Assembly (NCBI GenBank): GCA_041649575.1
Contig: JBAZMW010000002.1
Coordinates: 1 to 32,000 of the forward strand
Source of the DNA: Patescibacteria group bacterium
GTDB lineage: Bacteria; Patescibacteriota; Patescibacteriia; 2-01-FULL-39-33
Length of the DNA: 32,000 nt
Reading direction: 5' to 3'
Positions 1,857 through 19,027 of the stretch are shown in pieces; within the stretch, counting starts at the first letter, position 1, and every line of letters starts with the position of its first letter. The translations under genes and the position numbers were made by a program. The notes under the pieces were generated by a model that was given only the letters and a program-made list of their open reading frames with translations, made no database searches and was not told where the DNA came from.

Positions 1857-3086
1857 ATGACAAACAAAGAATTAATCAAAGGTTTGCAGGAGCTTAAAAA
1901 GCTTGAGGTCGGTGGCCGGCCGCAGGCTGGTTGGGTTTTGTCCAGCCGTCAGATTCTCATGAGCCAATTGAATCCAAAAGCGACGGTTAGCGACGAAGCC
2001 AAGAATCAATCCTTTTATTACTGGCGTTATTTTAGCGGCACTTTCCGGCAAAGAGTCTTTCAGCCGGTGGGCGCTTTTTTGTTAATTATTTTTGCCCTGC
2101 TCACTTACAATGCCACTGTCAGCGTAGCCAGCGCCAGCCTGCCTGGCGATATGCTTTACCCGATTAAGACCGCCGGCGAAAAAGTTCAGTTAGCCCTGAC
2201 CTTTAACGACGAGAGCAAGGTCAAACTGCAGATGAATTTTGTTTCCCGGCGCGCCGATGAAATGCAGTTGATTGCCATCCAGGAAAATGATAATAATAGG
2301 AAGAGCAAAAAAATCGTTCAAACCGCCAAAAAAATTACCCAAGACAACAAATCATTGAAAGACAGTTTGGGCAAAATAAGCATGGCGGCCAACAAGCCGG
2401 CAGTGCTCGAGGTGGCCAAAGAGGTTGATATTAAAAGCCTAGAGATAAAGCAGAATATTGCCACAGTGCAGAATTCCTTGCCCGAAGCGGTAAAAAGCGA
2501 GGTCAAAGATGAGGTAAAGGAAGCCATTGTCACCACCGAAGCCGTCGGTACCAGCGCCCTGGGAGTGATAGTCGATAATTACAAAACCGGCCGGGCCAAT
2601 ATTTCCGGCCAGGAAGTCGCTTCTCGCGTGGCCGAAAGAATAAAGAGCACGGAAGACGACATCAAATCGGCCAGTAACGAAGTGAACGACGTCATCTCCG
2701 TTGTGTCGGGAACGGCTCCTTCTGTCATTTCCACCTCCACCAGCGCCATCAAGCTGGTCGATGTGGCTGGCAGTAGCACCACCTCCACTCTGCAAAACAT
2801 TGTTCAAAAGCCGCAGCAGGCCAAAGAGATCATCGAAGAAGCCAAGAATCTTCTGGGGCAAAAAGACTTCAGCTCGGCCCTGGAAAAAATTCAGCAAAGC
2901 AAGGATATCGTCGTTAATGTAGTTTCCAACGCTCAAAACATTGTTAATGAAATAAAAGAAGTGCAGTCGATAAATACCAGCACCGAGAATTTGCTTCTTA
3001 TCAATAGCAATAAAACCGGCTCCCAGCCTACCACCACCAGCTTGACGACCGGAGAGTCGACCAAAGAGATTTTGATTAAAAGGTGA
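1857..3086 (+). CDS. Single-pass membrane protein with a DUF5667-like domain; candidate anti-sigma / sigma-partner
   Basis: The gene starts 6 nt after the sigma stop codon. One TM segment is present (VGAFLLIIFALLTYNATVSVASA). It is followed by LPGDMLYPIKTAGEKVQLALTFNDESKVKLQMNFVSRRADEM, which I recognise as the DUF5667 pattern. The remainder is a long K/E- and S/T-rich extracytoplasmic tail. The anti-sigma role is inferred from position only. Confidence 0.6.
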   Translation: MTNKELIKGLQELKKLEVGGRPQAGWVLSSRQILMSQLNPKATVSDEAKNQSFYYWRYFSGTFRQRVFQPVGAFLLIIFALLTYNATVSVASASLPGDMLYPIKTAGEKVQLALTFNDESKVKLQMNFVSRRADEMQLIAIQENDNNRKSKKIVQTAKKITQDNKSLKDSLGKISMAANKPAVLEVAKEVDIKSLEIKQNIATVQNSLPEAVKSEVKDEVKEAIVTTEAVGTSALGVIVDNYKTGRANISGQEVASRVAERIKSTEDDIKSASNEVNDVISVVSGTAPSVISTSTSAIKLVDVAGSSTTSTLQNIVQKPQQAKEIIEEAKNLLGQKDFSSALEKIQQSKDIVVNVVSNAQNIVNEIKEVQSINTSTENLLLINSNKTGSQPTTTSLTTGESTKEILIKR

Positions 3087-3093
3087 TTATAGA

Positions 3094-3135
3094 GATTAGT
3101 TATTTAGATAACGATTAGTTATTAATATAACTAAT
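3094..3135. repeat. Cluster of three ATTAGTTAT sites (two direct, one inverted)
   Basis: GATTAGTTATT occurs at 3094-3104 and 3113-3123. The inverted copy ATAACTAAT is at 3127-3135. Copies 2 and 3 form an 8-bp-arm inverted repeat, TTAGTTAT-taat-ATAACTAA. Confidence 0.6.
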
Positions 3136-3243
3136 TAAGGGTTCGTTAAATTTTGGGAGGAATAGAGCGCAGGTTCCCGCCAGTTAATAAGTAAAGGCCG
3201 AACTGATTTTCAGGGCTTATTGGTTGGTCCGGGTCTCGAGAAA

Positions 3244-3265
3244 ATCCTTTTGTAATCAAAAGGAT
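3244..3265 (+). promoter_or_regulatory. Hairpin in the 5' leader of the giant surface-protein gene
   Basis: ATCCTTTT (3244-3251) pairs with AAAAGGAT (3258-3265) around a 6-nt loop. It lies about 70 nt upstream of ATG 3333. Function is unknown. Confidence 0.3.
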
Positions 3266-3332
3266 CTACAATCTGTCAGCTTTACCCAAAAATTTGGCGG
3301 GCTCATTAATAAATAAAAAAAATAAAGGTTCT

Positions 3333-6300
3333 ATGAAAAAATTATTAACCTATGTTGTAGTGGTCGCTACTATTGCTTGGTCGTTGGGTTTGGCATCTGT
3401 AGTCCCTATGGCTTCAGCTGCCTATGCCCCGACTGCCGGCGATAAGGTTAAAGTATCAAGCAGCTCGGCGGTTTATTATGTTGATGCCGACAGCAAAAAG
3501 CATCTTTTCTCCACCCAGAGCACTTTTGAGTCTTGGTATGGCCTGGTTTCTTCCAGCAGCTCTTATTGGTCACAGCAAGGCATCAAAACTATCACTCAGG
3601 AGGAGTTGGATGCTCTTTCCAATGGCAGCAATGTCAATATCCGTCAGGGTAGCTTGATTAAGTTTTCTGACAGCGCCGCTGTTTATGCGGTGTCCACTGG
3701 CAGCAAACTTTACACCGTCAAAAACGGTGACGCCGCCACTACTTTATTCGGTAGCAATTGGAGCACCAAGTTGCTAAAAGTAGTCAACAGCTTCCGCGCC
3801 GGTTATTATGATAACGGCAACGCGGTCGGCGAGTTGACTGCTTCTTCCAAATTGCCCGATGGTTTCTTGGTTAAGTATTCCGGCAGCGATGATACTGTTT
3901 ATTATCTAAGAGATGGCAAAAAGGATCCGTTAACCGATGACGCCTTTGTGGCCAACAAGCTCAAGGATAATTGGGTCATTACGGTTCCGTCTTCCATCAC
4001 TTATGATAACGGTTCATCGGTCACCGGCGCTGATGCCGAATTGACCACTGTGGCGGGCCCCGGTTCTGTTGTTCCGCCTTCATCAGGCTCTTCGCTGAGC
4101 GTTGCTTTGGCGTCAGATACGCCAGCAGCTGGCTTGGCGATTTATAGCGCTATTCGCGTCCCGTTCACCACGGTTGCGATGACAGCTTCGTCTGATGGTG
4201 ACATCACAGTCGACAGTTTGACTGTTGAGAGAAAAGGCGCTTCAGCCGATGCCAACTTTGCTTCAGTTGCCATTATCGATGCTGATACCAACGTCCAAAT
4301 TGGCGTCAATCAGAATTTGAATGCCAGTTCCAAGGCTGTTTTCAGCAATGATTTCGTGATCAAGGCTGGTACCACCAGAAAGATCCTGCTGGCCGGTAAT
4401 ATGAACGCGGCTGGCGCGGGCCAGGTTCCGGCTTTAGCTTTGTCAGAATTGGTTTTATCTGGCAGCGCGACGGTTGTCGGTTCTTTGCCGATCACTGGCA
4501 ACATCCAGACCATGACTTCTTTGACGATTGGTATTCCGACCGTCCAAAGAGGCAGCTATATGACCTCTACCTCCACCGATGTTAAGGTTGGTTCTCCCGC
4601 TTATATTGTCGGCGCTTTCAAGATCAGCGCTGATTCGACCGAAGGCCAGAGAGTCAAGCAGATTAAGTTCTACAATAGCGGTACTGCCGCCTTCGATTCC
4701 GATATTGGCAACTACAAATTATTGATTGACAACAGCACTCCGGTGACCGCCACCTTTACCAAAGATGGCAAATACTTGACTGCTGATTTCACCAATAATT
4801 CCGTCTTGATTGAAAAAGGCAAGAATAAGGAATTTGTCTTGAAAGCCGATATCCTGGACGGTTCGACCAGAACCATCAAGATTTCTATTTATCGCACTAC
4901 CGATGTCTTGGCTTCTGGCGACACCTTTGGTTATATGTACACTCCGGTTTATTCTGGTACTTCCAACAGCACCAGCAACCCGGTTTTGACCAATGACCAG
5001 TTGACAATTTCCACCGGCACCTTAAGAATTGAGTCAAGCTCTTCGGTTGAGGCTCAAGACATTTCTTATGGTGACAGTCAAGAATTGGGCGCTTTCAACC
5101 TGGTAGTGGCCGGCGAGCCGGTTTCCATTACCGCCTTGACTTTGGATGTCAGCTCCACTACCGCTGGCACCACCCAATTCACCAATTGGAAATTGGTTGA
5201 CAAAGACGGCAAGACCCTCTGGGGTCCGAATGATCCGGCTTCCGGCACCGTGGCTTATACTTCCAGCGTGCAGTTGCCGATTGGCAGCAATTTAGTCAAA
5301 GTGATTGCCGATGTGGAGAGCACCGGCGGTTGGGCCAACAACGAGACCTTCTACTTCAAGATCACTGGCTCAAACATTACCGCCACTGGCGTTACCACTA
5401 ACGACACTGTCACCGCTTCTCCGACTGGCGCGGTTAATGCCAACACCCAGACCTTCAAGCCGGCCAAATTGACCATCACGGCCAATTCTTTGCCGGTCGA
5501 TGGCACAGCCACTTTAGGAGCCAAGAAGTTCCTCTATGGTTCTTGGGCGTTGAGCACTTCTGGTTCTGGCGAAAACATTAAGGTTAGCGCTATCACTTTC
5601 GCCAACCAGGCCGCTACTACCACCAATTTGGACAGCGTCACTTTGTACGACGTCACCAACAAGACCAATTGCACCACCAAGTATCCGAACGCGACTTTGG
5701 ATAGCTATGGCTGTTTACTGATGGTTAAGGATGGTTATAGCAACACCACCACCTGGACATTGACCGATCCGATCATTGTCACTAAAAATACCAACCTTAC
5801 CCTTGAGCTGCGGGCCGATGTCAGAACGACCGCGGCGACCTATCAGGGGCACAAGGATGAGTTTGTGATTAGAAATGACGGTACTACTGCTCCGGTGACG
5901 GCGGTTGGCACAGTGACCAACAACACCGTGACCCCGACCGGCAGCGGCTACAATGCGACTGACGGCGCGGATATCACAATTGGCGGCGCTGGCACGATTA
6001 CTATCAATACCAGCGTTTCCCAGCCGGCCTCCAAGCTGTTAGCCGAGGGCCAGACCTATGAAGTCGGCCGTCTGAAATTAACCGCCACCAACGAGGCGAT
6101 TAAAGTCAGCGACTTGAACATTTGTGTAGGCACTGGTTCTGTGACCGGCGCTGGCGATGGCGACAAAGGCGATATTTCCAACATCAAGGTGTATAAGTCC
6201 ACTGACATGACCACGCCGCTCATTGACAGCGCTATTAACGCGGTTTGTGAGTCATTCAGCTTGGCTCAAGGCGCTTTGGAAGTGCCGGTTGGCTCTTCCG

Positions 6301-7169
6301 GTGTCGAATTGGTGATAAAAGCCACCACGGCCAAGGTTGACAACTCTGTCATTGATGAGTCGGGACTGGCTAATGCCAACTTTAAGCTCGGCATCGGCGG
6401 TACTGACGGCATTGCTGGCAAGGGCGTCAATTCCGGCTTATCCGCCAGCGAGACCTATACCGCTGGTTCCAGCTCGGCCATGATTCTTCATAGGAGCTAT
6501 CCGACGGTGACCATCACCACCCCGACCAACAAGTTGGTTTCCGGCGCGGTTTTGTATGACTTCACAGTCAACAACCCGACCAGCGAACCAGTCGCCATTT
6601 ATAAGGTTGGTTTCTATACCTCCACTTCTTCTGGCGATATCATGGTGACCAAGGGTGGTTTGGATGCTAAGTTACCTGATTGGAGCGCTTTCAAGAAGAT
6701 TGCTGACGATATCTCCACCACCACGGTTTTCTATGAAGGTGGCGATACCAATGGCCAGTATTGGAGCTTTATCCTCTGGAACCAAGATTCCACCTCTGAA
6801 ACTCAGAAGGAATTAAGGATTCCGGCCGGTTCCAATGCTCGCTTCCAGTTTATTGGCCGCACTGTTTCCGGTGTCGATGGCACGGCTGGTGAGAGTTTAC
6901 AAGTGTCTTTACTAGGCGATCCGGTTGCCACTTCTTCCACCGAGCTCACCGGCTCTCTAGCGTTAAACTTCAACCGTTTAACCGCCGATTTTGCCTTAGA
7001 TGCTGCGAAGCAGGCTGATCTGTGCCAGAACAACAACAAAGGCAACTTTGTCTGGTCAGATCTCTGGAGCAATGACGGCACCCAAGCGACTAATACCGCG
7101 CAATGGTACAACGGTTACTTGGTCGATGGTTTGTCCGGCACCTCCTCCGTGGTAAGCATTCTTGAGTAA
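3333..7169 (+). CDS. Giant secreted surface protein (S-layer/adhesin-like) with tandem degenerate beta-sandwich-like modules
   Basis: The ORF is open from TTG 3294. ATG 3333 is preceded by AAAGG and yields a classical signal peptide, MKKLLTYVVVVATIAWSLGLASVVPMASA|AY. The protein is very rich in T/S/G/A/V/N and poor in charged residues. At least 6 recurring modules of about 130-170 aa are visible. The N-terminal module is shared with ORF 14830..16101. Confidence 0.85.
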   Translation: MKKLLTYVVVVATIAWSLGLASVVPMASAAYAPTAGDKVKVSSSSAVYYVDADSKKHLFSTQSTFESWYGLVSSSSSYWSQQGIKTITQEELDALSNGSNVNIRQGSLIKFSDSAAVYAVSTGSKLYTVKNGDAATTLFGSNWSTKLLKVVNSFRAGYYDNGNAVGELTASSKLPDGFLVKYSGSDDTVYYLRDGKKDPLTDDAFVANKLKDNWVITVPSSITYDNGSSVTGADAELTTVAGPGSVVPPSSGSSLSVALASDTPAAGLAIYSAIRVPFTTVAMTASSDGDITVDSLTVERKGASADANFASVAIIDADTNVQIGVNQNLNASSKAVFSNDFVIKAGTTRKILLAGNMNAAGAGQVPALALSELVLSGSATVVGSLPITGNIQTMTSLTIGIPTVQRGSYMTSTSTDVKVGSPAYIVGAFKISADSTEGQRVKQIKFYNSGTAAFDSDIGNYKLLIDNSTPVTATFTKDGKYLTADFTNNSVLIEKGKNKEFVLKADILDGSTRTIKISIYRTTDVLASGDTFGYMYTPVYSGTSNSTSNPVLTNDQLTISTGTLRIESSSSVEAQDISYGDSQELGAFNLVVAGEPVSITALTLDVSSTTAGTTQFTNWKLVDKDGKTLWGPNDPASGTVAYTSSVQLPIGSNLVKVIADVESTGGWANNETFYFKITGSNITATGVTTNDTVTASPTGAVNANTQTFKPAKLTITANSLPVDGTATLGAKKFLYGSWALSTSGSGENIKVSAITFANQAATTTNLDSVTLYDVTNKTNCTTKYPNATLDSYGCLLMVKDGYSNTTTWTLTDPIIVTKNTNLTLELRADVRTTAATYQGHKDEFVIRNDGTTAPVTAVGTVTNNTVTPTGSGYNATDGADITIGGAGTITINTSVSQPASKLLAEGQTYEVGRLKLTATNEAIKVSDLNICVGTGSVTGAGDGDKGDISNIKVYKSTDMTTPLIDSAINAVCESFSLAQGALEVPVGSSGVELVIKATTAKVDNSVIDESGLANANFKLGIGGTDGIAGKGVNSGLSASETYTAGSSSAMILHRSYPTVTITTPTNKLVSGAVLYDFTVNNPTSEPVAIYKVGFYTSTSSGDIMVTKGGLDAKLPDWSAFKKIADDISTTTVFYEGGDTNGQYWSFILWNQDSTSETQKELRIPAGSNARFQFIGRTVSGVDGTAGESLQVSLLGDPVATSSTELTGSLALNFNRLTADFALDAAKQADLCQNNNKGNFVWSDLWSNDGTQATNTAQWYNGYLVDGLSGTSSVVSILE

Positions 7170-7204
7170 TTGGTTCAATTTAAGTTATTGTTGAAATAGA
7201 AAAT

Positions 7205-7243
7205 CCCGCCCGCTCAAAATTTGAGCGGGCGGGGTTGATTTTT
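7205..7243 (+). terminator. Rho-independent terminator after the giant surface-protein gene
   Basis: A perfect 11-bp GC-rich stem: CCCGCCCGCTC (7205-7215) pairs with GAGCGGGCGGG (7223-7233). It is followed by GTTGATTTTT. Confidence 0.9.
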
Positions 7244-7269
7244 GCCTGGTTTTTTGCTATAAATATAAT
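7242..7269 (+). promoter_or_regulatory. Sigma70-like promoter for the 7317..13988 operon (TTGCCT-16-TATAAT)
   Basis: TTGCCT at 7242-7247 and TATAAT at 7264-7269, about 48 nt upstream of ATG 7317. Confidence 0.45.
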
Positions 7270-7316: not shown

Positions 7317-8054
7317 ATGAAACAAGAAGAAAAAAAAATAATCATCTGGTTGGTCGTTATTATCGTTGCTATTGTTCTGGTGGCGGCCGGTTATTTTTTA
7401 ATAAAAAACAGGAATAATTTGTTCAAGCAACCGGCTCCAGTCAGTGCCGAGTTTAGTATTTACGGGCCGATTGATTATGCCAAGTACGAAAAAATTGGTT
7501 TAAAAAAAGAAAAAGTGGATATTTTGTTTGGGAAAATGAAAGAAACGACTGAAGCGCTGAAGATAAAGCCCAACGATTATGATTATTTAATCCAGCTCGG
7601 CGGTTTTGAAAAGATCTTAAAAGAGTATGATGCCGCCCTAAAGACTTACAGCCAGGCCATCTCGGCTTTTCCCGATTACGGCGTGGCTTATGCCGAAACA
7701 GCGGATATTTATATTTACCCTTTGGGCCGGTACAACGAAGCCGAGGATTATCTCAAGAAAGCGATAGAGAGAATGCCTTATCGCAGCGATTATTATCGTT
7801 GGCTGGCGGATTTGTATATTGCCAAGTTCCCTCAAAAGAAAGCGGAGATCGAGCCGTTGATGCTTCGCGGCGCCAAGGAAACTCCCTCCAACGCCCTGTC
7901 TTTTTATAGTTATCTGGTGGTTTATTTTCAGCGGGAAGGCGATTTCAATAAAGCGATTACTTATACCAATAAATGCGTTCAAATCGCTCCCGAGGCCGAG
8001 AGAGCCAATTTCCGGCAGACTCTGGGCGAGCTCCAGGCTGAACTGAAAAAGTAA
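7317..8054 (+). CDS. Membrane-anchored tetratricopeptide-repeat (TPR) protein
   Basis: N-terminal TM segment IIIWLVVIIVAIVLVAAGYFLI. TPR-like A/Y/L periodicity follows (YDAALKTYSQAISAFPDYGVAYAETADIYI..., GDFNKAITYTNKCVQIAPE). Confidence 0.75.
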   Translation: MKQEEKKIIIWLVVIIVAIVLVAAGYFLIKNRNNLFKQPAPVSAEFSIYGPIDYAKYEKIGLKKEKVDILFGKMKETTEALKIKPNDYDYLIQLGGFEKILKEYDAALKTYSQAISAFPDYGVAYAETADIYIYPLGRYNEAEDYLKKAIERMPYRSDYYRWLADLYIAKFPQKKAEIEPLMLRGAKETPSNALSFYSYLVVYFQREGDFNKAITYTNKCVQIAPEAERANFRQTLGELQAELKK

Positions 8055-8096
8055 AAATACTTAGATACCGCAATCTGGTAATATTTTTTTACTTTT

Positions 8097-9881
8097 ATGG
8101 AGATAAAAAAGTTCTATCAGAACAAGCTAATTGTTTTTTTCGCTATTATTGTTGTAGTTTTAATTTTCTATTCCAATATTTTCAACAACCAGTTTGCCTA
8201 TGACGATAACGATTTTTTTGTTAATTGGCAAACCGTTGAAAGCTTAGGCAACGCTAAGGCGCTGGTTTTGGGCGATTTACCACTTAGCCATCAGCATGTT
8301 TATCGTCCGCTAAGGAGCTTGTTGCAGGCGGTTACTTATCAGTTGTTTGGGCAAAATCCTTTAGGTTATCATTTTCTTGGGTTGTTTTTTTATATTTTGG
8401 CAATTTATTTGCTTTATTTGATTTTCAGAAAGATAATAAACGCCAAAGTCGCTTTTTTGTCGGCCATGATTTTTGCCGTTTTGCCGGTTCATGTCGAAGC
8501 TGTCACTTTTGTCACCGCCAGCTTCGATCTCTTTGGTATTGTTTTGATGCTGGCTAGTCTTTATTTTTATCTGCTGGGCAGAAATAAAAATAAAGCTTAT
8601 CTGGCCCTCTCTTTGATTTTGTCGCTGGCGGCCCTTTTTTCCTACGAGCTCACAGTCGTTTTGCCGCTACTTTTAGTTTTGTACGACAAGTGCTCGGACC
8701 GCGGGAAAAAAATTATTGTTAGCGTCAAAGAAAATTGGTTTTATTTTTTGGGCGTGGCTGTTTATCTGGCCGCCAGGTTTTATGTTATGAAGCTGCTAAA
8801 TCCCCAGTCATTTCTCACCGAACTGGATCCTAAAACAATAGTCTTTACCTCAATCAAATCTTTTTCAAATTATGTCTATCTGGCCGTCTTTAATTATCCC
8901 TTAAGCGTCAATCATCAGACTGTTTTAAGTAGTTCAATTTTTGACTTCAGTGTGGTTTTTTCCATAATTATCTTTGCCTTACTCCTGTACCTGTCTTGGT
9001 ATTTTTACAAAAAGAATAAGAGCGTCTATACTTTACTGATTGGCTGGTTTATTATTGGCCTGTTGCCGGCCGCCAATCTGGTGAGAGTCTCCCGTTTTGT
9101 CGCCGAAAGGTATCTTTTTTTGTCCTCGGTCGCCTTTGGCGTTTTGGTTCCCCTGATTTTTTTTAAGTTATTCAATTATTTTTCAAACAAAAAGCAGACG
9201 GCGGCCAGGATAATTACGGTCATAGTCCTGGTCCTGGTTTTTTTAACTTACGGATTTATGTCTTATGTCAGAAATAATGATTGGCAAAACGACGAAACAT
9301 TATGGCAAAAAACGCTTAAAAATGAGACTGGCGATACCCGTTCTCTGAATAATTTAGCTTTTGAGCTGCGGCAAAAGGGCCAAAACGAAAAAGCGATTGA
9401 TTATCTGGGCCAAGCCATCAAACTAGATCCAAATTATTATTTGGCCTACGAAAACTTGGGAGAAATCTATTCGGAATTAAATCAGCACGATAAAGCGATA
9501 GAAAATTTCAATAAAGTCATTGAATTGAAACCTAATTATTTTATCGCTTATGCCAACAGGGGATTCGATTATTTTTTGTTGGGCGAGGCAGAATTGGCTG
9601 AGAAAGATTATTTAAAGGCGCTGGAGCTAAACCCTCAGTTTTATCAGGCAAACCTTAATCTGGGTGGGTTTTATTTCGAGGCCGGCAATTTTGAACAAGC
9701 GATTGGTTATTTTGAAAAAGCTTTAGCGATAGACGGCAGCAACAGCGAGGTTTATGAAGCGCTGGGTCTAGCTTATCTGGGCGCTAGTCAGCCGTCAGCG
9801 GCCAAGGCCAGCTTTGCCAAAGCGTTAAAAATCAATCCTAATTCATCAAGGGCCAGGGATTTTCTTAATAAATTAAAATAG
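8097..9881 (+). CDS. Polytopic GT-C-fold membrane protein (TMTC/DUF1736-like) fused to C-terminal TPR repeats
   Basis: The N-terminus shows FAYDDNDFFVNW...VYRPLRSLLQAVTYQLFGQNPLGYHF, the hallmark loop of TMTC-like/PMT-related proteins. There are about 11 hydrophobic segments. The C-terminal ~190 aa are canonical TPRs (KAIDYLGQAIKLDPNYYLAYENLGEIY, KAIENFNKVIELKPNYFIAY, QAIGYFEKALAIDGSN). Confidence 0.75.
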   Translation: MEIKKFYQNKLIVFFAIIVVVLIFYSNIFNNQFAYDDNDFFVNWQTVESLGNAKALVLGDLPLSHQHVYRPLRSLLQAVTYQLFGQNPLGYHFLGLFFYILAIYLLYLIFRKIINAKVAFLSAMIFAVLPVHVEAVTFVTASFDLFGIVLMLASLYFYLLGRNKNKAYLALSLILSLAALFSYELTVVLPLLLVLYDKCSDRGKKIIVSVKENWFYFLGVAVYLAARFYVMKLLNPQSFLTELDPKTIVFTSIKSFSNYVYLAVFNYPLSVNHQTVLSSSIFDFSVVFSIIIFALLLYLSWYFYKKNKSVYTLLIGWFIIGLLPAANLVRVSRFVAERYLFLSSVAFGVLVPLIFFKLFNYFSNKKQTAARIITVIVLVLVFLTYGFMSYVRNNDWQNDETLWQKTLKNETGDTRSLNNLAFELRQKGQNEKAIDYLGQAIKLDPNYYLAYENLGEIYSELNQHDKAIENFNKVIELKPNYFIAYANRGFDYFLLGEAELAEKDYLKALELNPQFYQANLNLGGFYFEAGNFEQAIGYFEKALAIDGSNSEVYEALGLAYLGASQPSAAKASFAKALKINPNSSRARDFLNKLK

Positions 9882-9914
9882 TCTTTTTCGCGATTTTGCA
9901 TTATAATTTGTTTA

Positions 9915-11648
9915 TTGTCGAAATATCAATTCATGACGATTAATTTGAACAAAAAAGGATGGTCTTTATTTCTCTTGGCTGTAATTGTGGTTACGGCTGT
10001 CTTTTTTCGTTTTTGGCACTTGACCGGCAATGACCTGTATTCGGACGATGCTCTTTATTCTTTCCGCGCCCTGGGCTGGTTTGACTATCTGGGCGGTGGA
10101 CAGACCACTCCGGTCCAATGGTTTGGTTCTGTCCCTGGTTGGGCCAGATTGTCTTTTCATGATGCGCCGCCGCTGGTTCTGGCCATCCAAAACATTTTTT
10201 TTAAATTTCTAGGGCCGAATGTTTTGGCGGCACGTCTGCCGTTTGCTCTGGCTGGTCTGGGCGCAGTGCTGCTTTTGTATTTTTTGGTAAAAAAGAGCAA
10301 AAATCGAGGCCCGGCTTTGTTAGCCGCTTTTTTACTGGGCATTTCTTCTTTGGCGACTTGGGCGAGTCGGGTCGGTTATCTGGAGGGAGTGGAAGTGTTT
10401 TTTATTGTTTTGAGCGTTTTTTTTCTGGCCAATTTTTTGGCTGGCGGCAAAAAATACAATTTGTATTGGTGGGGTATTACCATCGGTTTGTCGTTGCTTT
10501 GCAAATATACGGCCATTTTTCTGCTACCGGCGGCGATTTTATACCTTTTGATTTGGCGCCGGTCGGCTTTCAAAACCAAAGAGTTATGGTTGGCTCTGGT
10601 TTTATTTCTGGCCGTGCTGACTCCCATTATTATTTATAATGTCAATGTTTTTCAAACACGCGGTCATTTTGACGCTGCCTTGTCGTCGATGGTCGGCCTG
10701 CACCCGGAAGACTTTAAGACCGTTGCCAGCCGTGGTTTGAGCTTGAATTGGTGGCAAAATCTTCTTTCTCTGCCAAAAGACGCCCTTTTCACCACCACCT
10801 CTTTCCCTATTTTTTTACTGCTAATTATTTCCTTTGTTTATCTGTTGGTCAAGGTGGTCAGAAAGAAAGGCGATTATTTAGAAAATTTCATTTTTATCAA
10901 TCTGGTCATGGTTCTGGCGATGTTTGCTTTTGTCGGTGCCGGGCCAAGATTTTTTTCTATTGTCATGCCGTTTTTATCGCTGGTGTTAGCTTTATTCATC
11001 AGCGACATCTGGCGCTGGCTAAGGCAAAAAGAATTTTTGGTGGTGCAAAAGATAATGATTCTGATTTTATTATTAGCGTTTGTCGGGGAAATTGTTTACA
11101 ATATTAACACCAATCTCTCGGTCAAGTCGGCTGGCTGGCCGAATATTTCTTATTCCAGCGCCCGTTTTTATAATCTGGGTTTCAATCAGTTAGATGCTTA
11201 TCTGCAAAATGATGTTTTAACCCCGCTGCCGGCGCCGCTGAGACTTACTGCTTTAAATGATATCTTTCTAAATCCAGAAGATATCAAGGGCGCGCGTTTA
11301 GTTTTGACCGACGAGAGAATCAATTGGTTTGCCTATTCCTGGTATCTGCAAAAATATTCCTTTTTTTATCATTTACCGGTAGTTTCTTTTTATGATGTTT
11401 TAAACCTAACTGTTCCCAATAAGCTCGACCCGATGGAATTTCTAAAAAATTCTGGTGCCAAGGATATTTATTATATTTTGGCCTTGGATGACTCGGTGCT
11501 TGATCCCGTCAAAAAAGAAAATTCCAACCTAGGATACGCCATGAAATTGTTGGGAGACAAACTGCAAGAGCGGGGCGCTGATGTCAAAGAGATAAAAAAT
11601 CATAATAATTTAGCGGTTTTTAAAATTTATCATCTTAAAAATAATTAA
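9915..11648 (+). CDS. GT-C glycosyltransferase, family 39/83 (ArnT/PMT_2-like)
   Basis: The polytopic N-terminal half carries DDALYSFRALGWFDY...FHDAPPLVLA, an Asp-containing first loop plus a PPL motif typical of ArnT/PMT_2. The C-terminal half is soluble. The start is either TTG 9915 or ATG 9933. Confidence 0.75.
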   Translation: MSKYQFMTINLNKKGWSLFLLAVIVVTAVFFRFWHLTGNDLYSDDALYSFRALGWFDYLGGGQTTPVQWFGSVPGWARLSFHDAPPLVLAIQNIFFKFLGPNVLAARLPFALAGLGAVLLLYFLVKKSKNRGPALLAAFLLGISSLATWASRVGYLEGVEVFFIVLSVFFLANFLAGGKKYNLYWWGITIGLSLLCKYTAIFLLPAAILYLLIWRRSAFKTKELWLALVLFLAVLTPIIIYNVNVFQTRGHFDAALSSMVGLHPEDFKTVASRGLSLNWWQNLLSLPKDALFTTTSFPIFLLLIISFVYLLVKVVRKKGDYLENFIFINLVMVLAMFAFVGAGPRFFSIVMPFLSLVLALFISDIWRWLRQKEFLVVQKIMILILLLAFVGEIVYNINTNLSVKSAGWPNISYSSARFYNLGFNQLDAYLQNDVLTPLPAPLRLTALNDIFLNPEDIKGARLVLTDERINWFAYSWYLQKYSFFYHLPVVSFYDVLNLTVPNKLDPMEFLKNSGAKDIYYILALDDSVLDPVKKENSNLGYAMKLLGDKLQERGADVKEIKNHNNLAVFKIYHLKNN

Positions 11649-11663
11649 TCTAACCTTTAAGAT

Positions 11664-13988
11664 ATGAACCAATCTAAAATTTTGGTATTGATTCCCAAGG
11701 TCATTATCTGGCTGTGTCTGGCCGTTATTTTATTCTCGCCCCTTTATGTCAGCAGCCATCTTTTTTTTCCTTTTATCGTCACCAAAACCCTGGTTTTTAA
11801 TATTGCGGTAGAGGTAATGGTTTTGGCTTTTTTGTTTCTGGCCAGCATAAGTGGCGACTATAAAATCAGGATTAATTTGGCGGTTATCTTGGTCGCGGTT
11901 TATATTATCTTGTCTTTCATTTCTTCTTTGGCGGGCGATAATTTTTACCGCAGTTTCTGGAGCAATAACGAAAGAAGCGAAGGATTGCTCCTCTTACTAC
12001 ATCTCTTTTTGTTTTTGGTGGTGCTTTCCAGCTTCTTTAGAAAAATAAAGAGTTGGCTTTTGGTTTTTGACACTTTTTTCTTCGCCAGTTTTCTGGTCGC
12101 TTTGATTGCCCTGGGTCAGTATTTCAAGCTTGATTGGCTTTTTGCTTCCGGTGACGGCCAGCGCCTGGCCGGCACTATTGGTAATGCCGGCTATATGGCC
12201 GGCTACTTGGTTTTTGCCGTTTTTCTGGGCTTATTATTGGTTTTTAAGCGGAAAACCATTTATTTGAAAATTTATTATCTGATAGTAATGGCTTTGGAGG
12301 TCTTTATTATTTTCGGTACTGGTACAAGGGGTGGTATGCTGGCGCTGTTGCTTGGAGCTTTTTTGTTTGTCTTGTATTTACTTTTCTTTTATTTCAAAAA
12401 TAAATATTTAAAATTGGCCGGAGTGGTGGTTATACTTTTGGCTTTGGGGCTGCCCTTGGTAGTGTTTGCCAATAAAGATTCACATTGGGTGAAAAGTAAT
12501 TTTGCCCTGAACAGACTTTCCACTATTTCCGCCACCACGGTCACCGCTCAATACCGGTTTATGACTTGGCAAGCGGCTTGGCAGGGCTTTAAGAAAAAAT
12601 CCGTCCTTGGTTGGGGTCAGGAAAATTTTTATCAACCGTTTGACAAATACTTCAATCCTAAAATATTTCGTCATGGTGGTTCGGTGGTTTGGTATGATCG
12701 CGCTCACAATATAGTTTTTGACCGCTTGGTTACCGGCGGCATCCTGGGCCTGCTGTCTTATTTGGCGCTTTTGTTCGTTCCTTGTTATTTTTTGTGGCGC
12801 CAGCGGGCGAAAAAGGAACCAGAGGCGGGCAATGACCAAGAAAAAAAAGGCAAGAGATATTTCATCCAGGTGATCTTTTCTTTAATTGTTCTGGCTTATT
12901 TTATTCAGAATTTGTTTATTTTTGAGGCTTTGGCTACTTATATTCCTTTATTTCTGGTATTGAGCTTCATTGGCTTGTTTGGTTGGAGCTACGATTGGCA
13001 GCCGCTAGCCAGCCGCCGTGTCAAGTTAGCGTTTTTTATTTTTTGGCTGATTGTTTTTTTACCGATTCTATATTTTGTCAACCTCAAGCCGCTCAATGCC
13101 AACTTGACCCTGACCAAAGCTTTAAGCAGCCAGGATTTGAGTGTTAGCGAGAGAATTGATCTTTTCAAACAAGTTTTGTCGCAGCAGACCCCGGGTAATC
13201 AGGAATATCGACGGCAGCTGTTCAATCTTTTGGAGGCGTTGATTACCCAAAAGTTCCCGGATAAAAAAGTTATTTCCGACCTGGCCGATTTTACCGGCAG
13301 CGAATTAAACAAACAGATCGCCGAAAACCCCCACAGTGTTTCCAATTATTTGCTACTGATGAGATTCAACAGTTCCATGTTCAGTCAGACCGGCAATCTC
13401 GATTATCTTAATAAAAACTTGGATCTTTTTGATCAGGCCAAGGAGCTGTCGCCGGCCCGTCAGGTTATATATTTTGAAATCGGCTATTCCTACATAGCCA
13501 TGGGTAATTATTTTAAACAAACTAGCCAGGGGGAGATGGCCCAGAAATATTATGATTTGGCCGTAGATAACTTTCGTTACGCCCTGGAGTTAAACGATAC
13601 TAATTTCGAATCATACAGGCAGTTAATAAGCGCCTTAATTTATGCCGGTAAAAACCAAGACGTGCTAGATTTTATCGACCAAATGAATCAGAAGGAAAAA
13701 GAAAAAATAATGGATGATTACGATCACACCAGTTTTTTTACCAGCGTCATTAACATCGGCGTTTCAGTAAAAAATTACCAAATTGCAAGATCGATGGCCC
13801 AAAAACTGATTGAGATAGACCCCAAAAATCCTTTGTATTATGTCCAACTGGCTTTAGCTGAAGCCTATTTAGGCAATAACAATGAGGCTATAACAGTAGC
13901 TCAAAAAGTGGCGGAATTCGGAGACGATTACAAAAAACAGTCTGAAGATTTCATCCAAAAGGTAAAAGCGGGCGATTTTTCCAAGTAG
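11664..13988 (+). CDS. O-antigen ligase/polymerase-family (Wzy_C) membrane protein with a C-terminal TPR-like helical domain
   Basis: About 12 TM segments are present. GTIGNAGYMAGYLVF and GTRGGMLALLLGAFLF match the Wzy_C family pattern. The C-terminal ~300 aa are helical-repeat-like (GEMAQKYYDLAVDNFRYALELNDTNFESY, ARSMAQKLIEIDPKNPLYYVQLALAEAYLGN). Confidence 0.7.
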   Translation: MNQSKILVLIPKVIIWLCLAVILFSPLYVSSHLFFPFIVTKTLVFNIAVEVMVLAFLFLASISGDYKIRINLAVILVAVYIILSFISSLAGDNFYRSFWSNNERSEGLLLLLHLFLFLVVLSSFFRKIKSWLLVFDTFFFASFLVALIALGQYFKLDWLFASGDGQRLAGTIGNAGYMAGYLVFAVFLGLLLVFKRKTIYLKIYYLIVMALEVFIIFGTGTRGGMLALLLGAFLFVLYLLFFYFKNKYLKLAGVVVILLALGLPLVVFANKDSHWVKSNFALNRLSTISATTVTAQYRFMTWQAAWQGFKKKSVLGWGQENFYQPFDKYFNPKIFRHGGSVVWYDRAHNIVFDRLVTGGILGLLSYLALLFVPCYFLWRQRAKKEPEAGNDQEKKGKRYFIQVIFSLIVLAYFIQNLFIFEALATYIPLFLVLSFIGLFGWSYDWQPLASRRVKLAFFIFWLIVFLPILYFVNLKPLNANLTLTKALSSQDLSVSERIDLFKQVLSQQTPGNQEYRRQLFNLLEALITQKFPDKKVISDLADFTGSELNKQIAENPHSVSNYLLLMRFNSSMFSQTGNLDYLNKNLDLFDQAKELSPARQVIYFEIGYSYIAMGNYFKQTSQGEMAQKYYDLAVDNFRYALELNDTNFESYRQLISALIYAGKNQDVLDFIDQMNQKEKEKIMDDYDHTSFFTSVINIGVSVKNYQIARSMAQKLIEIDPKNPLYYVQLALAEAYLGNNNEAITVAQKVAEFGDDYKKQSEDFIQKVKAGDFSK

Positions 13989-14153: not shown

Positions 14154-14795
14154 ATGTTGTTTATGCACAAAAAAATCAATCTCTCCTCATCTTTGAGGAA
14201 TGCTTTGATTGTTGTGGTGGCGTTGTTTTTTGTGGCCACGGCGGTTTACGCTACTACCATAATCGGGACTAACATAAGCACTGGCGGGACTTTAACGGTA
14301 AGCGGAGATTCCACTTTAACTTCGGCTACCACCAGCCATACTTTGTATGTCACAAGTTACGCCTCTTCCACCGGCGGCCTTTTCACTCAAGGTAATTTAC
14401 ACGCTGGCGGCACCGCTTCTTTTGACGGTAACTCCACTTTTGGCAAGTCGTCATCAATTGTCAATCTGTTCACCGGTACTCTACAGGCATCCACCACGGC
14501 TTTATTTACCGGGGCGAGTACTTTTTATAACACTATAAACCTCAAAAATACCTCTGGCGGCACTTTTGATTTGACCACCAGCACCGCCACCACCACCAAA
14601 GGTATCTTTTCTCGCGATCATACCAACTCAACTTCAACCGTTAGTATTGGTGATGTTGGCTCTGCGGCTACCAAAGGTTGCTTAGAAATAACTGGTACCG
14701 ACGGAGTATTTTATAGTTGTTTTATTGATAACACTCACGGCACTGCCACCACCAGCGGCTACTACCTGTTGTGTCATCTGGGCCGGTGTATATAA
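14154..14795 (+). CDS. Secreted or membrane-anchored Thr/Gly/Ser-rich repeat protein (beta-helix-like periodicity), function unknown
   Basis: N-terminal hydrophobic anchor ALIVVVALFFVATAVYA. Short repeats of the type G-x-L-x-V-S-G-x-S-T-L follow (GGTLTVSGDSTLTS, GGTASFDGNSTFG, TGTLQASTTALFTGASTF). The C-terminus carries 4 Cys (GCLEI..YSCFI..LLCHLGRCI). The start is ATG 14154 or ATG 14166. Confidence 0.6.
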   Translation: MLFMHKKINLSSSLRNALIVVVALFFVATAVYATTIIGTNISTGGTLTVSGDSTLTSATTSHTLYVTSYASSTGGLFTQGNLHAGGTASFDGNSTFGKSSSIVNLFTGTLQASTTALFTGASTFYNTINLKNTSGGTFDLTTSTATTTKGIFSRDHTNSTSTVSIGDVGSAATKGCLEITGTDGVFYSCFIDNTHGTATTSGYYLLCHLGRCI

Positions 14796-16163: not shown

Positions 16164-17312
16164 TTATTTTTTGTATTCGCTTAGAGTTTCCAGAATCATT
16201 TTTTGAAAAGAAAAATCATTTATTACAGCAAGCCTTGCTTGTTCGGCCATTTTTTTTGCCAAAGCGGGGTCAGCGATTACTTGTTTGATTTTTTCTGCTA
16301 ACTTAGCGGAATTACCAGGCTCCGAGAGCAGGCCGGTCTTACCATCTTTTATTATCTCCGGGATACCTCCTATTCTGGTGGCGACAATAGGCAGCCCAGC
16401 GGCCATTGCTTCTAGAATGGAGTAAGGCAACCCTTCCTTTAAAGAAGAGCAAAGGTAAAGATCAAAGGCTTTTAGGTATTGGGCGGCATCACTCTGGCTG
16501 CCAGCTAAAATGAATTTATTTTCCAGCCCGGCTTCTTTGATTAAATTTTCCAATTCCGGCCTTAGTTCGCCATCGCCAATCACCACGGCCACGACAGGTA
16601 TTGGATCGGTGTTTATTATCTTTATCGCTTCAATGAAGTATTTTAAGCCTTTGTTGGCATAAAAATTGGCTATGGTGCCGACTATGATTCCTGTCAGGGG
16701 GAGGCCCAATTTTTTTCTAGCCTCTGGCTGGTCTAAAAATTTTATTTTGTCCAGGTTAATCCCATTAGGGATAACCGCTAATTTGTTTTGGGGAGCAATA
16801 TTTTTTTTCAAAGCGGATTGTTTGTCTAATTGGGAAAGGCAAATGATTTTGTCTTTGAACCGGCTGGTGCTTTTTTCTAAGACGAGGTAGGCTAGTTTTA
16901 TCAGAGGATTTAGCGATTCGTTGAATACCCAGCCATGGCAAGTGAAAATAACCCTGGCTTTATGTTTAGCCAGTTTAGCGGCCAGCGAACCAACCACACC
17001 GGCTTTACTGCTGTTTAGATGTATTATATCTGGCTTTTCTTTCTCTATTGTCTTTTTTATTTCCCAAACAGCCAGCAAATCTTTTAGAGGATTAATCTCT
17101 CGGACCAGATTTTTGAAAGTTATTGATTTCAGCCCTTGGTTTTTTGCCCTTTCCGCCAGTTCGCCCTTGTTTTTAGCGCCGCCGCTAATTATTATTTCTA
17201 GGTTGGGCTCATCTTTTAGCCCGCTTATCAGATCATAAACATACTTTTGCGCACCGCCCCAAGAGAGTAAAGTGATTATATATAAAACCTTCGTTTTTTC
17301 AGAGTTGTTCAT
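16164..17312 (-). CDS. Glycosyltransferase family 4 (GT-B fold)
   Basis: The N-terminus WGGAQKYVYDL matches the GT4 donor/acceptor domain. The C-terminus shows the E-x7-E region SLKEGLPYSILEAMAAGLPIVATRIGGIPEII. Confidence 0.85.
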   Translation of the reverse strand: MNNSEKTKVLYIITLLSWGGAQKYVYDLISGLKDEPNLEIIISGGAKNKGELAERAKNQGLKSITFKNLVREINPLKDLLAVWEIKKTIEKEKPDIIHLNSSKAGVVGSLAAKLAKHKARVIFTCHGWVFNESLNPLIKLAYLVLEKSTSRFKDKIICLSQLDKQSALKKNIAPQNKLAVIPNGINLDKIKFLDQPEARKKLGLPLTGIIVGTIANFYANKGLKYFIEAIKIINTDPIPVVAVVIGDGELRPELENLIKEAGLENKFILAGSQSDAAQYLKAFDLYLCSSLKEGLPYSILEAMAAGLPIVATRIGGIPEIIKDGKTGLLSEPGNSAKLAEKIKQVIADPALAKKMAEQARLAVINDFSFQKMILETLSEYKK

Positions 17313-17384: not shown

Positions 17385-18239
17385 ATGGAAAATAAAAAAA
17401 TTGGTTTTATCGGCCAGGGCTGGATTGGCAAAAATTACGCCGATGATTTGGAAGCAAGAGGCTATGAGGTAGTCAGATATTCTCTGGAGGAGCCTTTTGT
17501 AAACAACAAGGAAAAAATAAAAGATTGTAATATTGTTTTTATCGCCGTACCCACACCAACGACCTCAGCCGGCTTCGACGATGCTATCGTCAGAAGCGCT
17601 GTCAAATTGGTCGGTAGCGGCCAGTCGGCGGTTATCAAGTCTACTATTTTACCAGGTACCACCCAATCGATTCAGGCAGAGAATCCCGGCATCTTCGTTT
17701 TTCATTCGCCGGAATTCCTCTCGGTCTCCACGGCCTATGAAGATTCACATCATCCACAGAGAAACATTGTCGGCATACCGGTGGATAACGAAGAATATCG
17801 TAACCGCGCTCGAGAAATTTTGTCAGTTCTGCCCACCGCCGATTTTTCCTTAATTACTGATGCCAGGGAGGCGGAGCTTTTTAAATATCTACGTAATTGT
17901 TTTTTTTATACCAAAGTCATCTATATGAATTTGCTGTACGATCTGGCGAAAAACCTCGGCTGTCGTTGGGAGACGCTTAGAGAAATTATGGCCAATGATC
18001 CCTGGATTGGCAGCATGCACATAGACCCGGTACATAAATCTGGCCGTGGCGCCGGCGGCGAATGTTTCATTAAAGATTTTGCCGCTTTCAGGAAATTTTA
18101 TCAGGCAAAGGTCTCCGATAGCGTGGCCGATGAAATTTTCAAGAGTCTGGAAGACAAAAACCGTGAACTACTTATAAAAAGCAATAAGGATTTGAATTTG
18201 CTAAAAGGGGTCTACGGCGAAGAGACAACAAAAAAATAA
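17385..18239 (+). CDS. UDP-glucose/GDP-mannose dehydrogenase-family protein lacking the C-terminal UDP-binding domain
   Basis: Motif-for-motif correspondence with Ugd-type enzymes, recalled from memory. The shared motifs are: GFIGQGWIGKN (Rossmann), IVFIAVPTPT, VIKSTILPGTT, HSPEFLSVSTAYEDSHHPQRNIVG, TDAREAELFKYLRNCFFYTKVIYMNLLYDLA, and RGAGGECFIKD (catalytic Cys loop). At 284 aa the protein ends where the third domain should begin. Confidence 0.8.
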   Translation: MENKKIGFIGQGWIGKNYADDLEARGYEVVRYSLEEPFVNNKEKIKDCNIVFIAVPTPTTSAGFDDAIVRSAVKLVGSGQSAVIKSTILPGTTQSIQAENPGIFVFHSPEFLSVSTAYEDSHHPQRNIVGIPVDNEEYRNRAREILSVLPTADFSLITDAREAELFKYLRNCFFYTKVIYMNLLYDLAKNLGCRWETLREIMANDPWIGSMHIDPVHKSGRGAGGECFIKDFAAFRKFYQAKVSDSVADEIFKSLEDKNRELLIKSNKDLNLLKGVYGEETTKK

Positions 18240-18260
18240 ATTTTTTTATAAAAATAATAA

Positions 18261-18295
18261 CGCGTCGTCCCCGCTTGAGTCAGGGGGACGACGCG
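18261..18295 (-). terminator. GC-rich hairpin terminator of the minus-strand cassette gene
   Basis: CGCGTCGTCCCC (18261-18272) pairs with GGGGACGACGCG (18284-18295). On the minus strand it is followed by TTATTATTTTTATAAAAAAA. On the plus strand no T-run follows. Confidence 0.75.
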
Positions 18296-18314
18296 GTCTG
18301 TACTTGGTGCGTGT

Positions 18315-18827: not shown

Positions 18828-18900
18828 CTGTAAACGCCTCCTTTTCCACTTTCTTATGTACAGGACTAAGACCTGCCACATCAGTAGCAGATTATTTATT

Positions 18901-18940: not shown

Positions 18941-18942
18941 TT

Positions 18943-18971: not shown

Positions 18972-19027
18972 AATAGGGATAATCATTGGTTTAGGTAGAT
19001 AAAGAATGCCAAGGTAATTTTTTTAAT

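Follow-up and report, generated by a model that had tools for sequence, protein, structure and literature searches.

A conserved Patescibacteria cell-surface locus built around a giant beta-sandwich protein, with a candidate O-glycosylation module

We analysed a stretch of 32,000 nucleotides (the window) at the end of a 235-kb metagenome contig from a Patescibacteria group bacterium (assembly GCA_041649575.1, contig JBAZMW010000002.1, positions 1 to 32,000). Four consecutive plus-strand genes at 7317 to 13988 belong to a conserved Patescibacteria cell-surface locus which is built around the gene of a giant beta-sandwich protein. They encode a small tetratricopeptide repeat (TPR) protein anchored by a transmembrane (TM) helix, a TMTC-like membrane glycosyltransferase (GT) of the GT-C type with a TPR domain, a PMT_2-type GT-C, and a Wzy_C-family protein with a TPR tail. 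An earlier reading of the letters alone (the sequence-only reading) had described the same four genes, and its coordinates and domain calls hold. By analogy to characterised systems, and with moderate confidence, we regard this as a surface-protein O-glycosylation locus with the Wzy_C/TPR protein as candidate transferase. The sequence-only reading had also proposed O-glycosylation of surface proteins, with the TMTC-like gene as centrepiece. It was right in kind, as judged from synteny, topology and the presence of a GT2 gene, and wrong in emphasis: by analogy to WsaB, WsfB and PglL, the Wzy_C/TPR protein is more likely the protein transferase than the TMTC-like one. The giant gene and the four module genes are as follows.

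3333..7169, plus strand: giant secreted surface protein of 1,278 aa with signal peptide, SAVYY module, tandem beta-sandwiches and a conserved C-terminal motif
7317..8054, plus strand: TM-anchored TPR (TM-TPR) protein of 245 aa with one N-terminal TM helix (TPR_1, E 2.7e-11)
8097..9881, plus strand: TMTC-like GT-C/TPR protein of 594 aa (PMT_2 at residues 71-223, E 2.2e-11; TPR_1, E 2.7e-35)
9933..11648, plus strand (start at 9915 or 9933): PMT_2/ArnT-type GT-C (PMT_2, E 8.7e-23; PMT, E 7.7e-8)
11664..13988, plus strand: Wzy_C-family protein of 774 aa with a TPR tail (Wzy_C, E 3.2e-19, 69.6 bits against a cut-off of 31.7)

Related loci were collected by a scan with the giant-protein family, using a subset of closer homologues as query and one genome per species, which resulted in 43 loci (labelled L003 and the like). 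Counts out of 30 refer to those 30 of the 43 that extend at least 3 kb beyond the 3'-end of the giant gene. Neighbours were called by searching the window proteins and family hidden Markov models against every open reading frame (ORF) of the related loci. The next gene on the same strand after the giant homologue, at a gap of 16-965 bp, was a module gene in 28 out of 30 loci, namely the TM-TPR gene in 18, the Wzy_C/TPR gene in 5 and the PMT_2 gene in 5. The TM-TPR gene was present in 26/30 loci, the Wzy_C/TPR gene followed within 8 kb downstream of the giant homologue in 14/30, and the PMT_2 gene was present in 12/30; PMT_2 or Wzy_C was found in 22/30. Locus content varies: some loci have Wzy_C/TPR only, others PMT_2 only, often as two paralogues flanking the TPR gene, and others both. 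Furthermore, two Wzy_C/TPR homologues that were chosen blind to their context (L056 and L057) both turned out to lie in loci with the sigma-DUF5667-giant-TPR arrangement (2/2), with GT4, methyltransferase and B12-radical S-adenosylmethionine (SAM) genes after the giant-TPR part. The tie between the module and Ser/Thr-rich surface genes, expected by the sequence-only reading, is thus borne out in both directions, and the association of module and giant gene is strongly non-random, far beyond chance.

Two distant loci separate the module from the remaining features. In both, the giant protein carries PG_binding_1, the surroundings are housekeeping genes and a glycan cluster is lacking; directly downstream of the giant gene, L054 has the TM-TPR gene and L055 the Wzy_C/TPR gene. 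Therefore, the link follows the body of the giant protein, not the SAVYY module or the glycan cluster. A minus-strand GT4 gene was conserved downstream in 20 of the 27 loci with at least 5 kb of downstream sequence. The closest related loci from the scan with the giant family belong mostly to Candidatus Buchananbacteria. Loci of the Patescibacteria type also occurred under titles reading 'uncultured Gammaproteobacteria bacterium' (L007, L009, L011 and many others), which look like mislabels.

The giant protein is flanked, on the other side of the module, by two more secreted proteins.

14154..14795, plus strand: secreted Thr/Ser-rich protein of 213 aa (Ser+Thr 32%), with homologues in L015-L017, L020 and L056
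14830..16101, plus strand: secreted protein of 423 aa with a SAVYY module at the C-terminus and homologues in L015-L017

All three carry an N-terminal signal or anchor, and the claim that they are rich in Ser and Thr stands: the Ser+Thr content is 23.6% (3333-7169), 32.4% (14154-14795) and 23.2% (14830-16101), compared with 6-18% in the other 20 ORFs of the window. In folded beta-sandwich proteins such richness is no evidence of glycosylation by itself. Full-length homologues of the giant protein (n=121) have about 1,150-1,300 aa, and every one with an informative source name is from Patescibacteria. In the AlphaFold (AF2) model of residues 30-1229 (predicted local distance difference test score, pLDDT, 85.9) a mixed alpha/beta N-terminal module is followed by all-beta tandem sandwiches. 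None of the three surface proteins had a Pfam match at E<=10, and no Pfam family covers the conserved body of the giant family. Foldseek searches with the giant model matched nothing more specific than generic multi-Ig or macroglobulin-type proteins (TM-scores 0.1-0.2), and beyond generic beta-sandwiches the giant protein had no relative in the PDB.

The N-terminal alpha/beta module consists of three 'SAVYY' repeats (residues about 35-240). SAVYY copies lie at 3420-4064 and 15640-16030 of the window, as a triple repeat that has no Pfam family; residues 271-400 of the 423-aa protein match residues 35-158 of the giant protein with 36% identity (E 1e-19). The module is represented by 2,576 cluster representatives, in N- or C-terminal position of proteins of 218-1,753 aa. 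Several homologues of the giant protein carry PG_binding_1 at the position where others have SAVYY. Because of this exchange at the same position, SAVYY is probably a wall-binding anchor domain that has not been described before, and we take the giant protein for a major surface protein attached to the wall. It may be the main surface protein, possibly S-layer-like. Among its best conserved parts is the C-terminal motif FxWSDL...QWxNGYLV, still present at 23% overall identity and read here as GNFVWSDL...QWYNGYLV (F1239, W1241, D1243, N1260; window 6960-7169, residues about 1210-1278). TPR domains often bind terminal peptides, and the motif may be a sorting signal or a tail bound by a TPR partner. 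The G+C content is 0.51-0.52 in window 4001-7000, that is in the giant gene, and 0.39-0.44 in the remainder of the window, which probably reflects a composition rich in Ala, Gly, Thr and Ser.

The sequence-only reading made outward-facing TPR domains a point to be checked. TM counts, densities of Lys and Arg (K+R) and family flank charges predict all of them outside the membrane. For the TM-TPR protein the copy in the window is ambiguous, with a charge of +1 in the N-terminal and +3 in the C-terminal flank of the helix. In the family the N-terminal flank is the more positive one in 27 out of 29 members, and the protein is predicted to have its N-terminus inside and the TPR domain outside. No other module gene accompanies the giant gene as constantly, and by analogy the protein resembles WsaA in role.

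The helical tail of the Wzy_C protein, about 300 aa long, is a true TPR: the family profile matched a consensus TPR protein with E 1.7e-53. The Wzy_C/TPR family fits 13 TM helices, with a K+R density of 0.28 in cytoplasmic and 0.10 in outer loops. This predicts that the catalytic loops are outside and that the 13th TM helix carries the TPR tail outward. Invariant in 16 homologues are R222, R298 and the block W343-D345-R346-H348, and the triad R222/R298/H348 corresponds to R215/R288/H338 of WaaL and R224/R298/H349 of PglL (PMC3643930). The best solved relative of the family profile in the PDB is WaaL (7tpg, E 4e-10). G316 and G318 are also invariant in the family; they equal positions specific to PglL (PMC3643930) by number only, not by alignment to PglL. 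Among 492 homologues, those with names are nearly all from Patescibacteria.

The PMT_2 protein at 9933-11648 scored 81.7 bits with PMT_2 (cut-off 26.1) and had no match in NCBIfam, the Pmt equivalog NF058602 included. Its family fits 11 TM helices (K+R 0.26 in inner and 0.07 in outer loops) and a C-terminal outer domain of about 180 aa which is not a TPR. D34, D38, H76, D77, K191, H245 and D247 are invariant, D34 and D38 across 18 homologues, and the family profile matched ArnT in the PDB (5ezm, E 2.8e-4). Loci with Wzy_C/TPR often have no PMT_2. Four loci (L024, L033, L034, L042) have no Wzy_C/TPR and two PMT_2 paralogues around the TM-TPR gene, an either/or pattern that recalls the paired GT-Cs PgfM1/M2 and Pmt1/2.

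The TMTC-like protein matches its eukaryotic counterparts in layout. For human TMTCs an arrangement of 11 TM helices has been deduced, with the motifs DD, SHKSYRP (outer loop 1, EL1), KE(T/Q)xxT (EL3), DW (EL4) and ERxxY (EL5) (PMC7801869). The AF2 model of 8097-9881 (pLDDT 95.4, predicted template modelling score 0.92) has 11 membrane-length helices and an amphipathic helix in EL4. Five to six canonical TPRs at residues 399-594 follow TM11, and the motifs FAYDDNDF and HVYRPL are present. K+R densities across 52 homologues are 0.25 in cytoplasmic and 0.10 in outer loops. With an odd number of TM helices and a cytoplasmic N-terminus, the TPR domain is predicted to be extracytoplasmic. DD is kept across the family (52/52 and 51/52 sequences), and the protein of the window has SHQHVYRP, HPxHxE and AERY. 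The EL3 motif reads SYELT (window 8643-8657, residues 183-187), in which the Glu is kept and the Lys that is proposed to bind the donor phosphate in TMTCs is replaced by Tyr; this replacement is common to a subclade of the candidate phyla radiation (CPR) with 10 of the 52 sequences. A clear DW motif is missing, TMTC_DUF1736 of Pfam did not match, the membrane-domain profile had no match among PDB sequences at E<=10, and the score with NF058602 was 22 bits against a cut-off of 800. The protein is probably an active transferase that depends on a polyprenol-phosphate-linked sugar; its analogy to TMTCs is one of architecture only.

This gene is accessory in the locus of this genome, because it was found in 0/30 related loci. 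In the closest relatives of the locus (61-64% identity) the TM-TPR gene abuts PMT_2 with no TMTC-like gene in between. The nearest homologues of the TMTC-like protein (about 40% identity) lie in unrelated contexts, five out of six without a Ser/Thr-rich neighbour: alone (L003, L052), after a GT2-methyltransferase gene (L053), or near PMT_2, GT2 and GT4 genes (L051). In L006 unrelated Ser/Thr-rich proteins are nearby; the 1,288-aa one was considered as a relative of the giant protein and rejected, since the sequences are unrelated. In L004, a Patescibacteria contig (6343-21854), six paralogues of 600-663 aa are arrayed around a GT2-GtrA fusion gene, which points to an expansion of the family on a polyprenol-phosphate-sugar donor. 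The central place that the sequence-only reading gave to this gene is thus not supported by its distribution; for this gene, the occurrence without nearby secreted Ser/Thr-rich proteins, which the same reading had named as refuting evidence, is largely what was observed.

Upstream of the giant gene and around it the following regulatory genes and transcription signals were found.

33-773: tyrosine recombinase gene that precedes the locus at the end of the contig
741..1064, minus strand: HTH_17 (MerR/excisionase-like) regulator by its Pfam match, divergent from the sigma gene
1296..1850, plus strand: sigma factor of the extracytoplasmic function (ECF) type (Sigma70_r2, Sigma70_r4_2, Sigma70_ECF)
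1857..3086, plus strand: anti-sigma-like DUF5667 protein (DUF5667, E 3.2e-12)
3087..3332, plus strand: conserved 5'-leader in front of the giant gene that contains a small hairpin, from a six-locus alignment
7202..7236, plus strand: very strong intrinsic terminator directly after the giant gene (16-bp stem, 10 of its pairs G-C, then a T-run)
7242..7269, plus strand: candidate sigma-70-like promoter before the TM-TPR gene, TTGCCT-16-TATAAT, with 10/12 consensus matches only

The genes for the ECF sigma factor and the DUF5667 protein were located upstream of the giant gene in 27/30 loci, and an HTH_17 homologue occupied the same upstream position in 26/30. The DUF5667 protein is laid out with a cytoplasmic N-terminus, one TM helix (residues 72-92) and a long extracytoplasmic part. 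This trio suggests that the surface protein is under a regulation of its own. Positions 1108-1127 form a palindrome, TGTCTAGACATGTCTGGACA. About 200 nt of the leader are conserved, with 39 invariant columns and a hairpin whose pairing is kept despite changes on both sides in the six loci. Rfam had no family match anywhere in the window, the leader included. The leader could stabilise the mRNA, have a regulatory role, or contain an ECF-type promoter. The junctions between the four module genes measure only 42, 51 and 15 bp. Because of the terminator, the promoter-like site and these short junctions, the sequence suggests a monocistronic giant gene followed by a four-gene operon. Phase variation by the upstream integrase was considered and rejected: convincing inverted repeats were not found, and the integrase/recombinase is conserved only in L009 and L030.

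Downstream of the surface-protein genes a large set of glycan genes begins.

16164..17312, minus strand: GT4 glycosyltransferase (Glycos_transf_1, Glyco_transf_4), the conserved cluster boundary
17385..31798, plus strand: glycan-assembly cluster, from Pfam and NCBIfam matches
17385-18239, plus strand: truncated UDP-glucose/GDP-mannose-dehydrogenase-like protein of 284 aa without the C-terminal domain
19028, 25191, 26348, 28164 and 30719, plus strand: five GT4s of the cluster
20167-21579 and 29203-30717, plus strand: two B12-radical SAM genes
21600-23000, plus strand: third PMT_2 GT-C
23031 and 24443, plus strand: amine-oxidase/GLF-like flavoprotein and methyltransferase, respectively
27460-28167, plus strand: GT2 resembling polyprenol-phosphate-sugar synthases (NCBIfam matches below cut-offs)

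The cluster extends at least 10 kb past the window, and over the window and these next 10 kb it comprises at least seven GT4s, two GT2s, methyltransferases and at least five B12-radical SAM genes. The third GT-C, already proposed by the sequence-only reading, is supported by its PMT_2 match. The same reading had called 27460-28167 a Dpm1/Ppm1-like synthase. As to type this agrees with the best NCBIfam matches, a dolichyl-phosphate hexose transferase (75 bits) followed by AglJ, ArnC, PgfS and PpgS; all of them are far below the curated cut-offs. The truncated dehydrogenase-like gene is kept at the same position in several loci (e.g. L009, L010, L030 and L049), GT4b and GT4c recur in related loci, and methyltransferase or radical SAM genes occur in some. 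Together with the two of the window, the B12-binding radical SAM genes at 1-861, 11073-12551 and 20262-21080 of L050 make up the at least five that are interleaved with GT4 and methyltransferase genes; such genes recur in L042, L056 and L057. Such genes are unusual in glycan loci and could serve C-methylation or another radical modification of sugars. At 14367-16106 of L050 a polytopic protein of 579 aa without Pfam match has an NDDELYY loop after the first TM helix and probably represents a further GT-C-like enzyme; a fourth PMT_2 gene and a second GT2 come after it.

In the O-glycosylation reading, the giant protein would be exported and tethered to the wall via its SAVYY module. On a polyprenol carrier, cytoplasmic GT4, GT2, methyltransferase and radical SAM enzymes would assemble a modified glycan, which would then be flipped across the membrane; no flippase was found within about 42 kb. 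The Wzy_C/TPR protein would next transfer this glycan en bloc to Ser/Thr residues of the giant surface protein, an activity proposed or shown for WsaB, WsfB and PglL. The GT2 would supply a polyprenol-phosphate-monosaccharide from which PMT_2-type GT-Cs could add single sugars outside the membrane. These would be placed on the protein itself, in the way of Pgf and GtrB/PgtC2, or attached as branches on the glycan, as WsfH/WsfD do. The outward TPR modules, which are free-standing, fused to Wzy_C or, here, also fused to a GT-C, may hold the protein substrate.

Several observations weigh against this reading. The sequences show domains, conserved catalytic residues, a predicted topology and a conserved gene order; from these we infer glycosylation of the proteins, and with it the protein as acceptor, the glycan's identity, the roles of the individual enzymes and the S-layer nature of the giant protein. 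Most of the giant protein consists of folded beta-sandwiches with only short linkers, without the long disordered Ser/Thr tracts that Pgf and GtrB modify. In six loci the TM-TPR gene occurs without any GT-C or Wzy_C inside 8 kb. The Wzy_C/TPR protein had no match with PglL_A (PF15864) at E<=0.01. Its identity of 38-61% (120 matches) exceeds that of the giant protein, which goes down to about 25%, and this higher conservation could point to a housekeeping function in the wall. TPR domains also work in polysaccharide export machines. As the sequence-only reading had remarked for the window, neither a flippase (Wzx/ABC) nor a priming phosphoglycosyltransferase is visible, and we found none in the window and the next 10 kb; a Wzm/Wzt exporter and a WsaP/WbaP-type primer are likewise missing within about 42 kb, whereas the characterised S-layer glycosylation (slg) clusters have both. 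Finally, WaaL ligases, Wzy polymerases and O-oligosaccharyltransferases (O-OTases) are inseparable by sequence (PMC3643930). Following that study, a sequence-based split of O-OTases from ligases and polymerases was rejected as unsound.

The main rival is a rather unlikely alternative. The module might make a cell-wall glycopolymer in the manner of secondary cell-wall polymers or teichoic acids; the Wzy_C/TPR protein would polymerise or ligate a polyprenol-linked glycan, PMT_2 would decorate it from polyprenol-phosphate-sugars, and export would be scaffolded by the TPR proteins. The surface-protein genes would then cluster here since their products bind to this polymer or co-assemble with it, and not on account of glycosylation. 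The very large neighbouring cluster, with its many GT4s, GT2s and radical SAM genes, is in line with such a product, as are the ligase WaaL (7tpg) as best solved relative of a Wzy_C family whose polymerases and ligases sequence does not separate (PMC3643930), the high conservation of the Wzy_C/TPR family across candidate phyla, and the spread of the SAVYY module, which behaves like a mobile anchor, over many proteins. Pairs of GT2 and GT-C glycosylate teichoic acids and rhamnopolysaccharides, too (PMC12041528). However, the adjacency of the giant gene to the TPR or Wzy_C gene outlasts both the exchange of SAVYY and the absence of the glycan cluster (L054, L055), and the TM-TPR or Wzy_C gene is the direct same-strand neighbour of a protein gene instead of lying inside the GT cluster. 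Nor were Wzx, Wzz or an ABC exporter found in the window and the next 10 kb. To our knowledge, an outward C-terminal TPR tail is not a feature of WaaL or Wzy. Such a tail has been reported for the O-OTases WsfB and PglL (PMC2943079).

Two other explanations are very unlikely. One takes the TMTC-like GT-C/TPR protein as the key enzyme, which would O-mannosylate the beta-sandwiches of its neighbours from polyprenol-phosphate-mannose as TMTCs do on cadherins. Its 11 TM helices, outward TPR and conserved DD, (S)HxxxYRP and ERxxY (PMC7801869) fit this idea, the L004 array after the GT2-GtrA fusion agrees with such a donor, the candidate substrates are beta-sandwich domains, and some homologues bear the Joint Genome Institute name 'protein O-mannosyl-transferase'. 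The idea fails to explain why the gene is absent from all giant-bearing loci, even those of 61-64% identity, and why most of its nearest homologues lie apart from Ser/Thr-rich neighbours; the proposed phosphate-binding Lys is Tyr, and the DUF1736 and PDB searches were empty. The other, of about the same low probability, regards the TM-TPR protein, and perhaps the Wzy_C/TPR protein, as non-catalytic factors of assembly, chaperoning or anchoring that bind, for instance, the C-terminal tail of the giant protein, with glycan genes as mere neighbours in an envelope super-operon. The constancy of the TM-TPR gene, its occurrence alone with the giant gene in six loci, L054 included, and the strongly conserved C-terminal motif speak for it. 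Against it, the invariant residues of Wzy_C (R222, R298, H348) and PMT_2 (D34, D38, H76, D77, K191) argue for active enzymes, and enzyme genes lie downstream of the giant gene in 22/30 loci.

Beyond the O-glycosylation reading itself we put forward a broader and more speculative proposal, which we consider improbable as it stands. The locus might represent a lineage-wide, ECF-controlled system in which outward TPR modules serve as interchangeable substrate adaptors for O-glycosylating the folded beta-sandwiches of the main envelope protein. Prokaryotes would then have a counterpart to the logic of TMTC and TMEM260, with Wzy_C (en bloc) and paired PMT_2 (stepwise) as alternative chemistries on one substrate.

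Envelope biogenesis in CPR/Patescibacteria has been described as unclear (PMC5220378). The locus provides first concrete leads: a candidate for the main surface protein, whose full-length homologues span several candidate phyla, a near-constant TM-TPR partner, candidate modifying enzymes, and a likely regulatory pair of ECF sigma and anti-sigma-like proteins. If the O-glycosylation reading is true, S-layer-type O-glycosylation would be extended to ultrasmall episymbiotic bacteria, and bacterial models would become available for TPR domains that guide membrane glycosyltransferases. In Patescibacteria, host attachment and phage recognition may plausibly depend on surface glycoproteins.

A description of this locus was not found in the literature that was searched, and its likenesses are spread over several known systems. 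With TMTC1-4 (GT105) and TMEM260, the protein at 8097-9881 shares 11 TM helices, the DD, YRP and ERxxY loops and a C-terminal TPR domain predicted to be non-cytoplasmic; the substrates of TMTCs and TMEM260 are folded cadherin or IPT beta-sandwich domains (PMC7801869, PMC10214176). In contrast to TMTC1-4, it has Tyr for Lys in KE(T/Q)xxT, no evident DW and no DUF1736 match, and is not a conserved member of the locus. WaaL (7tpg) has the Arg/His catalytic loop in common with the Wzy_C domain of the Wzy_C/TPR protein. It differs in having 12 TM helices with both ends cytoplasmic, is not known to carry a TPR, and uses lipid A-core as acceptor. The CPR genomes examined to date seem incapable of producing that acceptor (PMC5220378).

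The streptococcal pairs PgfS/PgfM1 and GtrB/PgtC2, each a GT2 (GT-A) with a GT-C, O-glycosylate Ser/Thr-rich regions of surface proteins outside the membrane (PMC12041528, PMC5856776). By analogy, these pairs and the actinobacterial Ppm1/Pmt resemble the combination seen here of a GT2 for polyprenol-phosphate-sugar and a GT-C with an outward Asp motif. Unlike the Ser/Thr-rich disordered substrates of the streptococcal enzymes, the proteins of this locus consist of folded beta-sandwiches joined by short linkers. Its GT-Cs are PMT_2/ArnT-like and not YfhO-like, and the PgfS and Pmt scores with NCBIfam are far below the cut-offs.

PglL/PilO of Neisseria, Acinetobacter and Pseudomonas share with the Wzy_C/TPR protein the Wzy_C core, the Arg/Arg/His triad at near-identical spacing, a C-terminal TPR and a gene that adjoins the proposed target; pglL adjoins its target gene in 21/31 cases (PMC3643930). 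The differences are the lack of a PglL_A signature, the TPR tail of about 300 aa, and the targets, which for PglL are Gram-negative pilins and periplasmic proteins.

The closest known systems are the Gram-positive slg loci of Geobacillus stearothermophilus NRS 2004/3a (sgsE/wsaA/wsaB) and Paenibacillus alvei (wsfB/wsfH/wsfD). The locus differs from them, apart from exporter and primer, in its Patescibacteria host, in a surface protein without Pfam or PDB relative, in the ECF sigma/DUF5667 pair, in the absent PglL_A signature, in mostly folded candidate substrates, in PMT_2 taking the place of Wzy_C in some loci, in its many B12-radical SAM genes and, in this genome, in the TMTC-like GT-C/TPR gene. 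The shared features concern the overall plan. S-layer genes are monocistronic, and in two species (genes sgsE and sgtA) they adjoin their slg clusters (PMC2943079), as the giant gene, predicted to be transcribed alone, adjoins the candidate glycosylation genes here. WsaB and WsfB are predicted O-OTases with Wzy_C; WsfB, like PglL, has a C-terminal TPR, and WsaB, which has none, is preceded by the 168-aa TPR protein WsaA (PMC2943079). The same two arrangements, a Wzy_C protein with TPR or one after a small TPR protein, are met in our locus. Branching glucose is added by WsfH/WsfD via a lipid-phosphate-linked sugar (PMC2943079), and the GT cluster with methyltransferase, together with a GT2 and a membrane transferase suited to such a lipid-phosphate-monosaccharide branch, completes the likeness between the slg loci and the locus described here.

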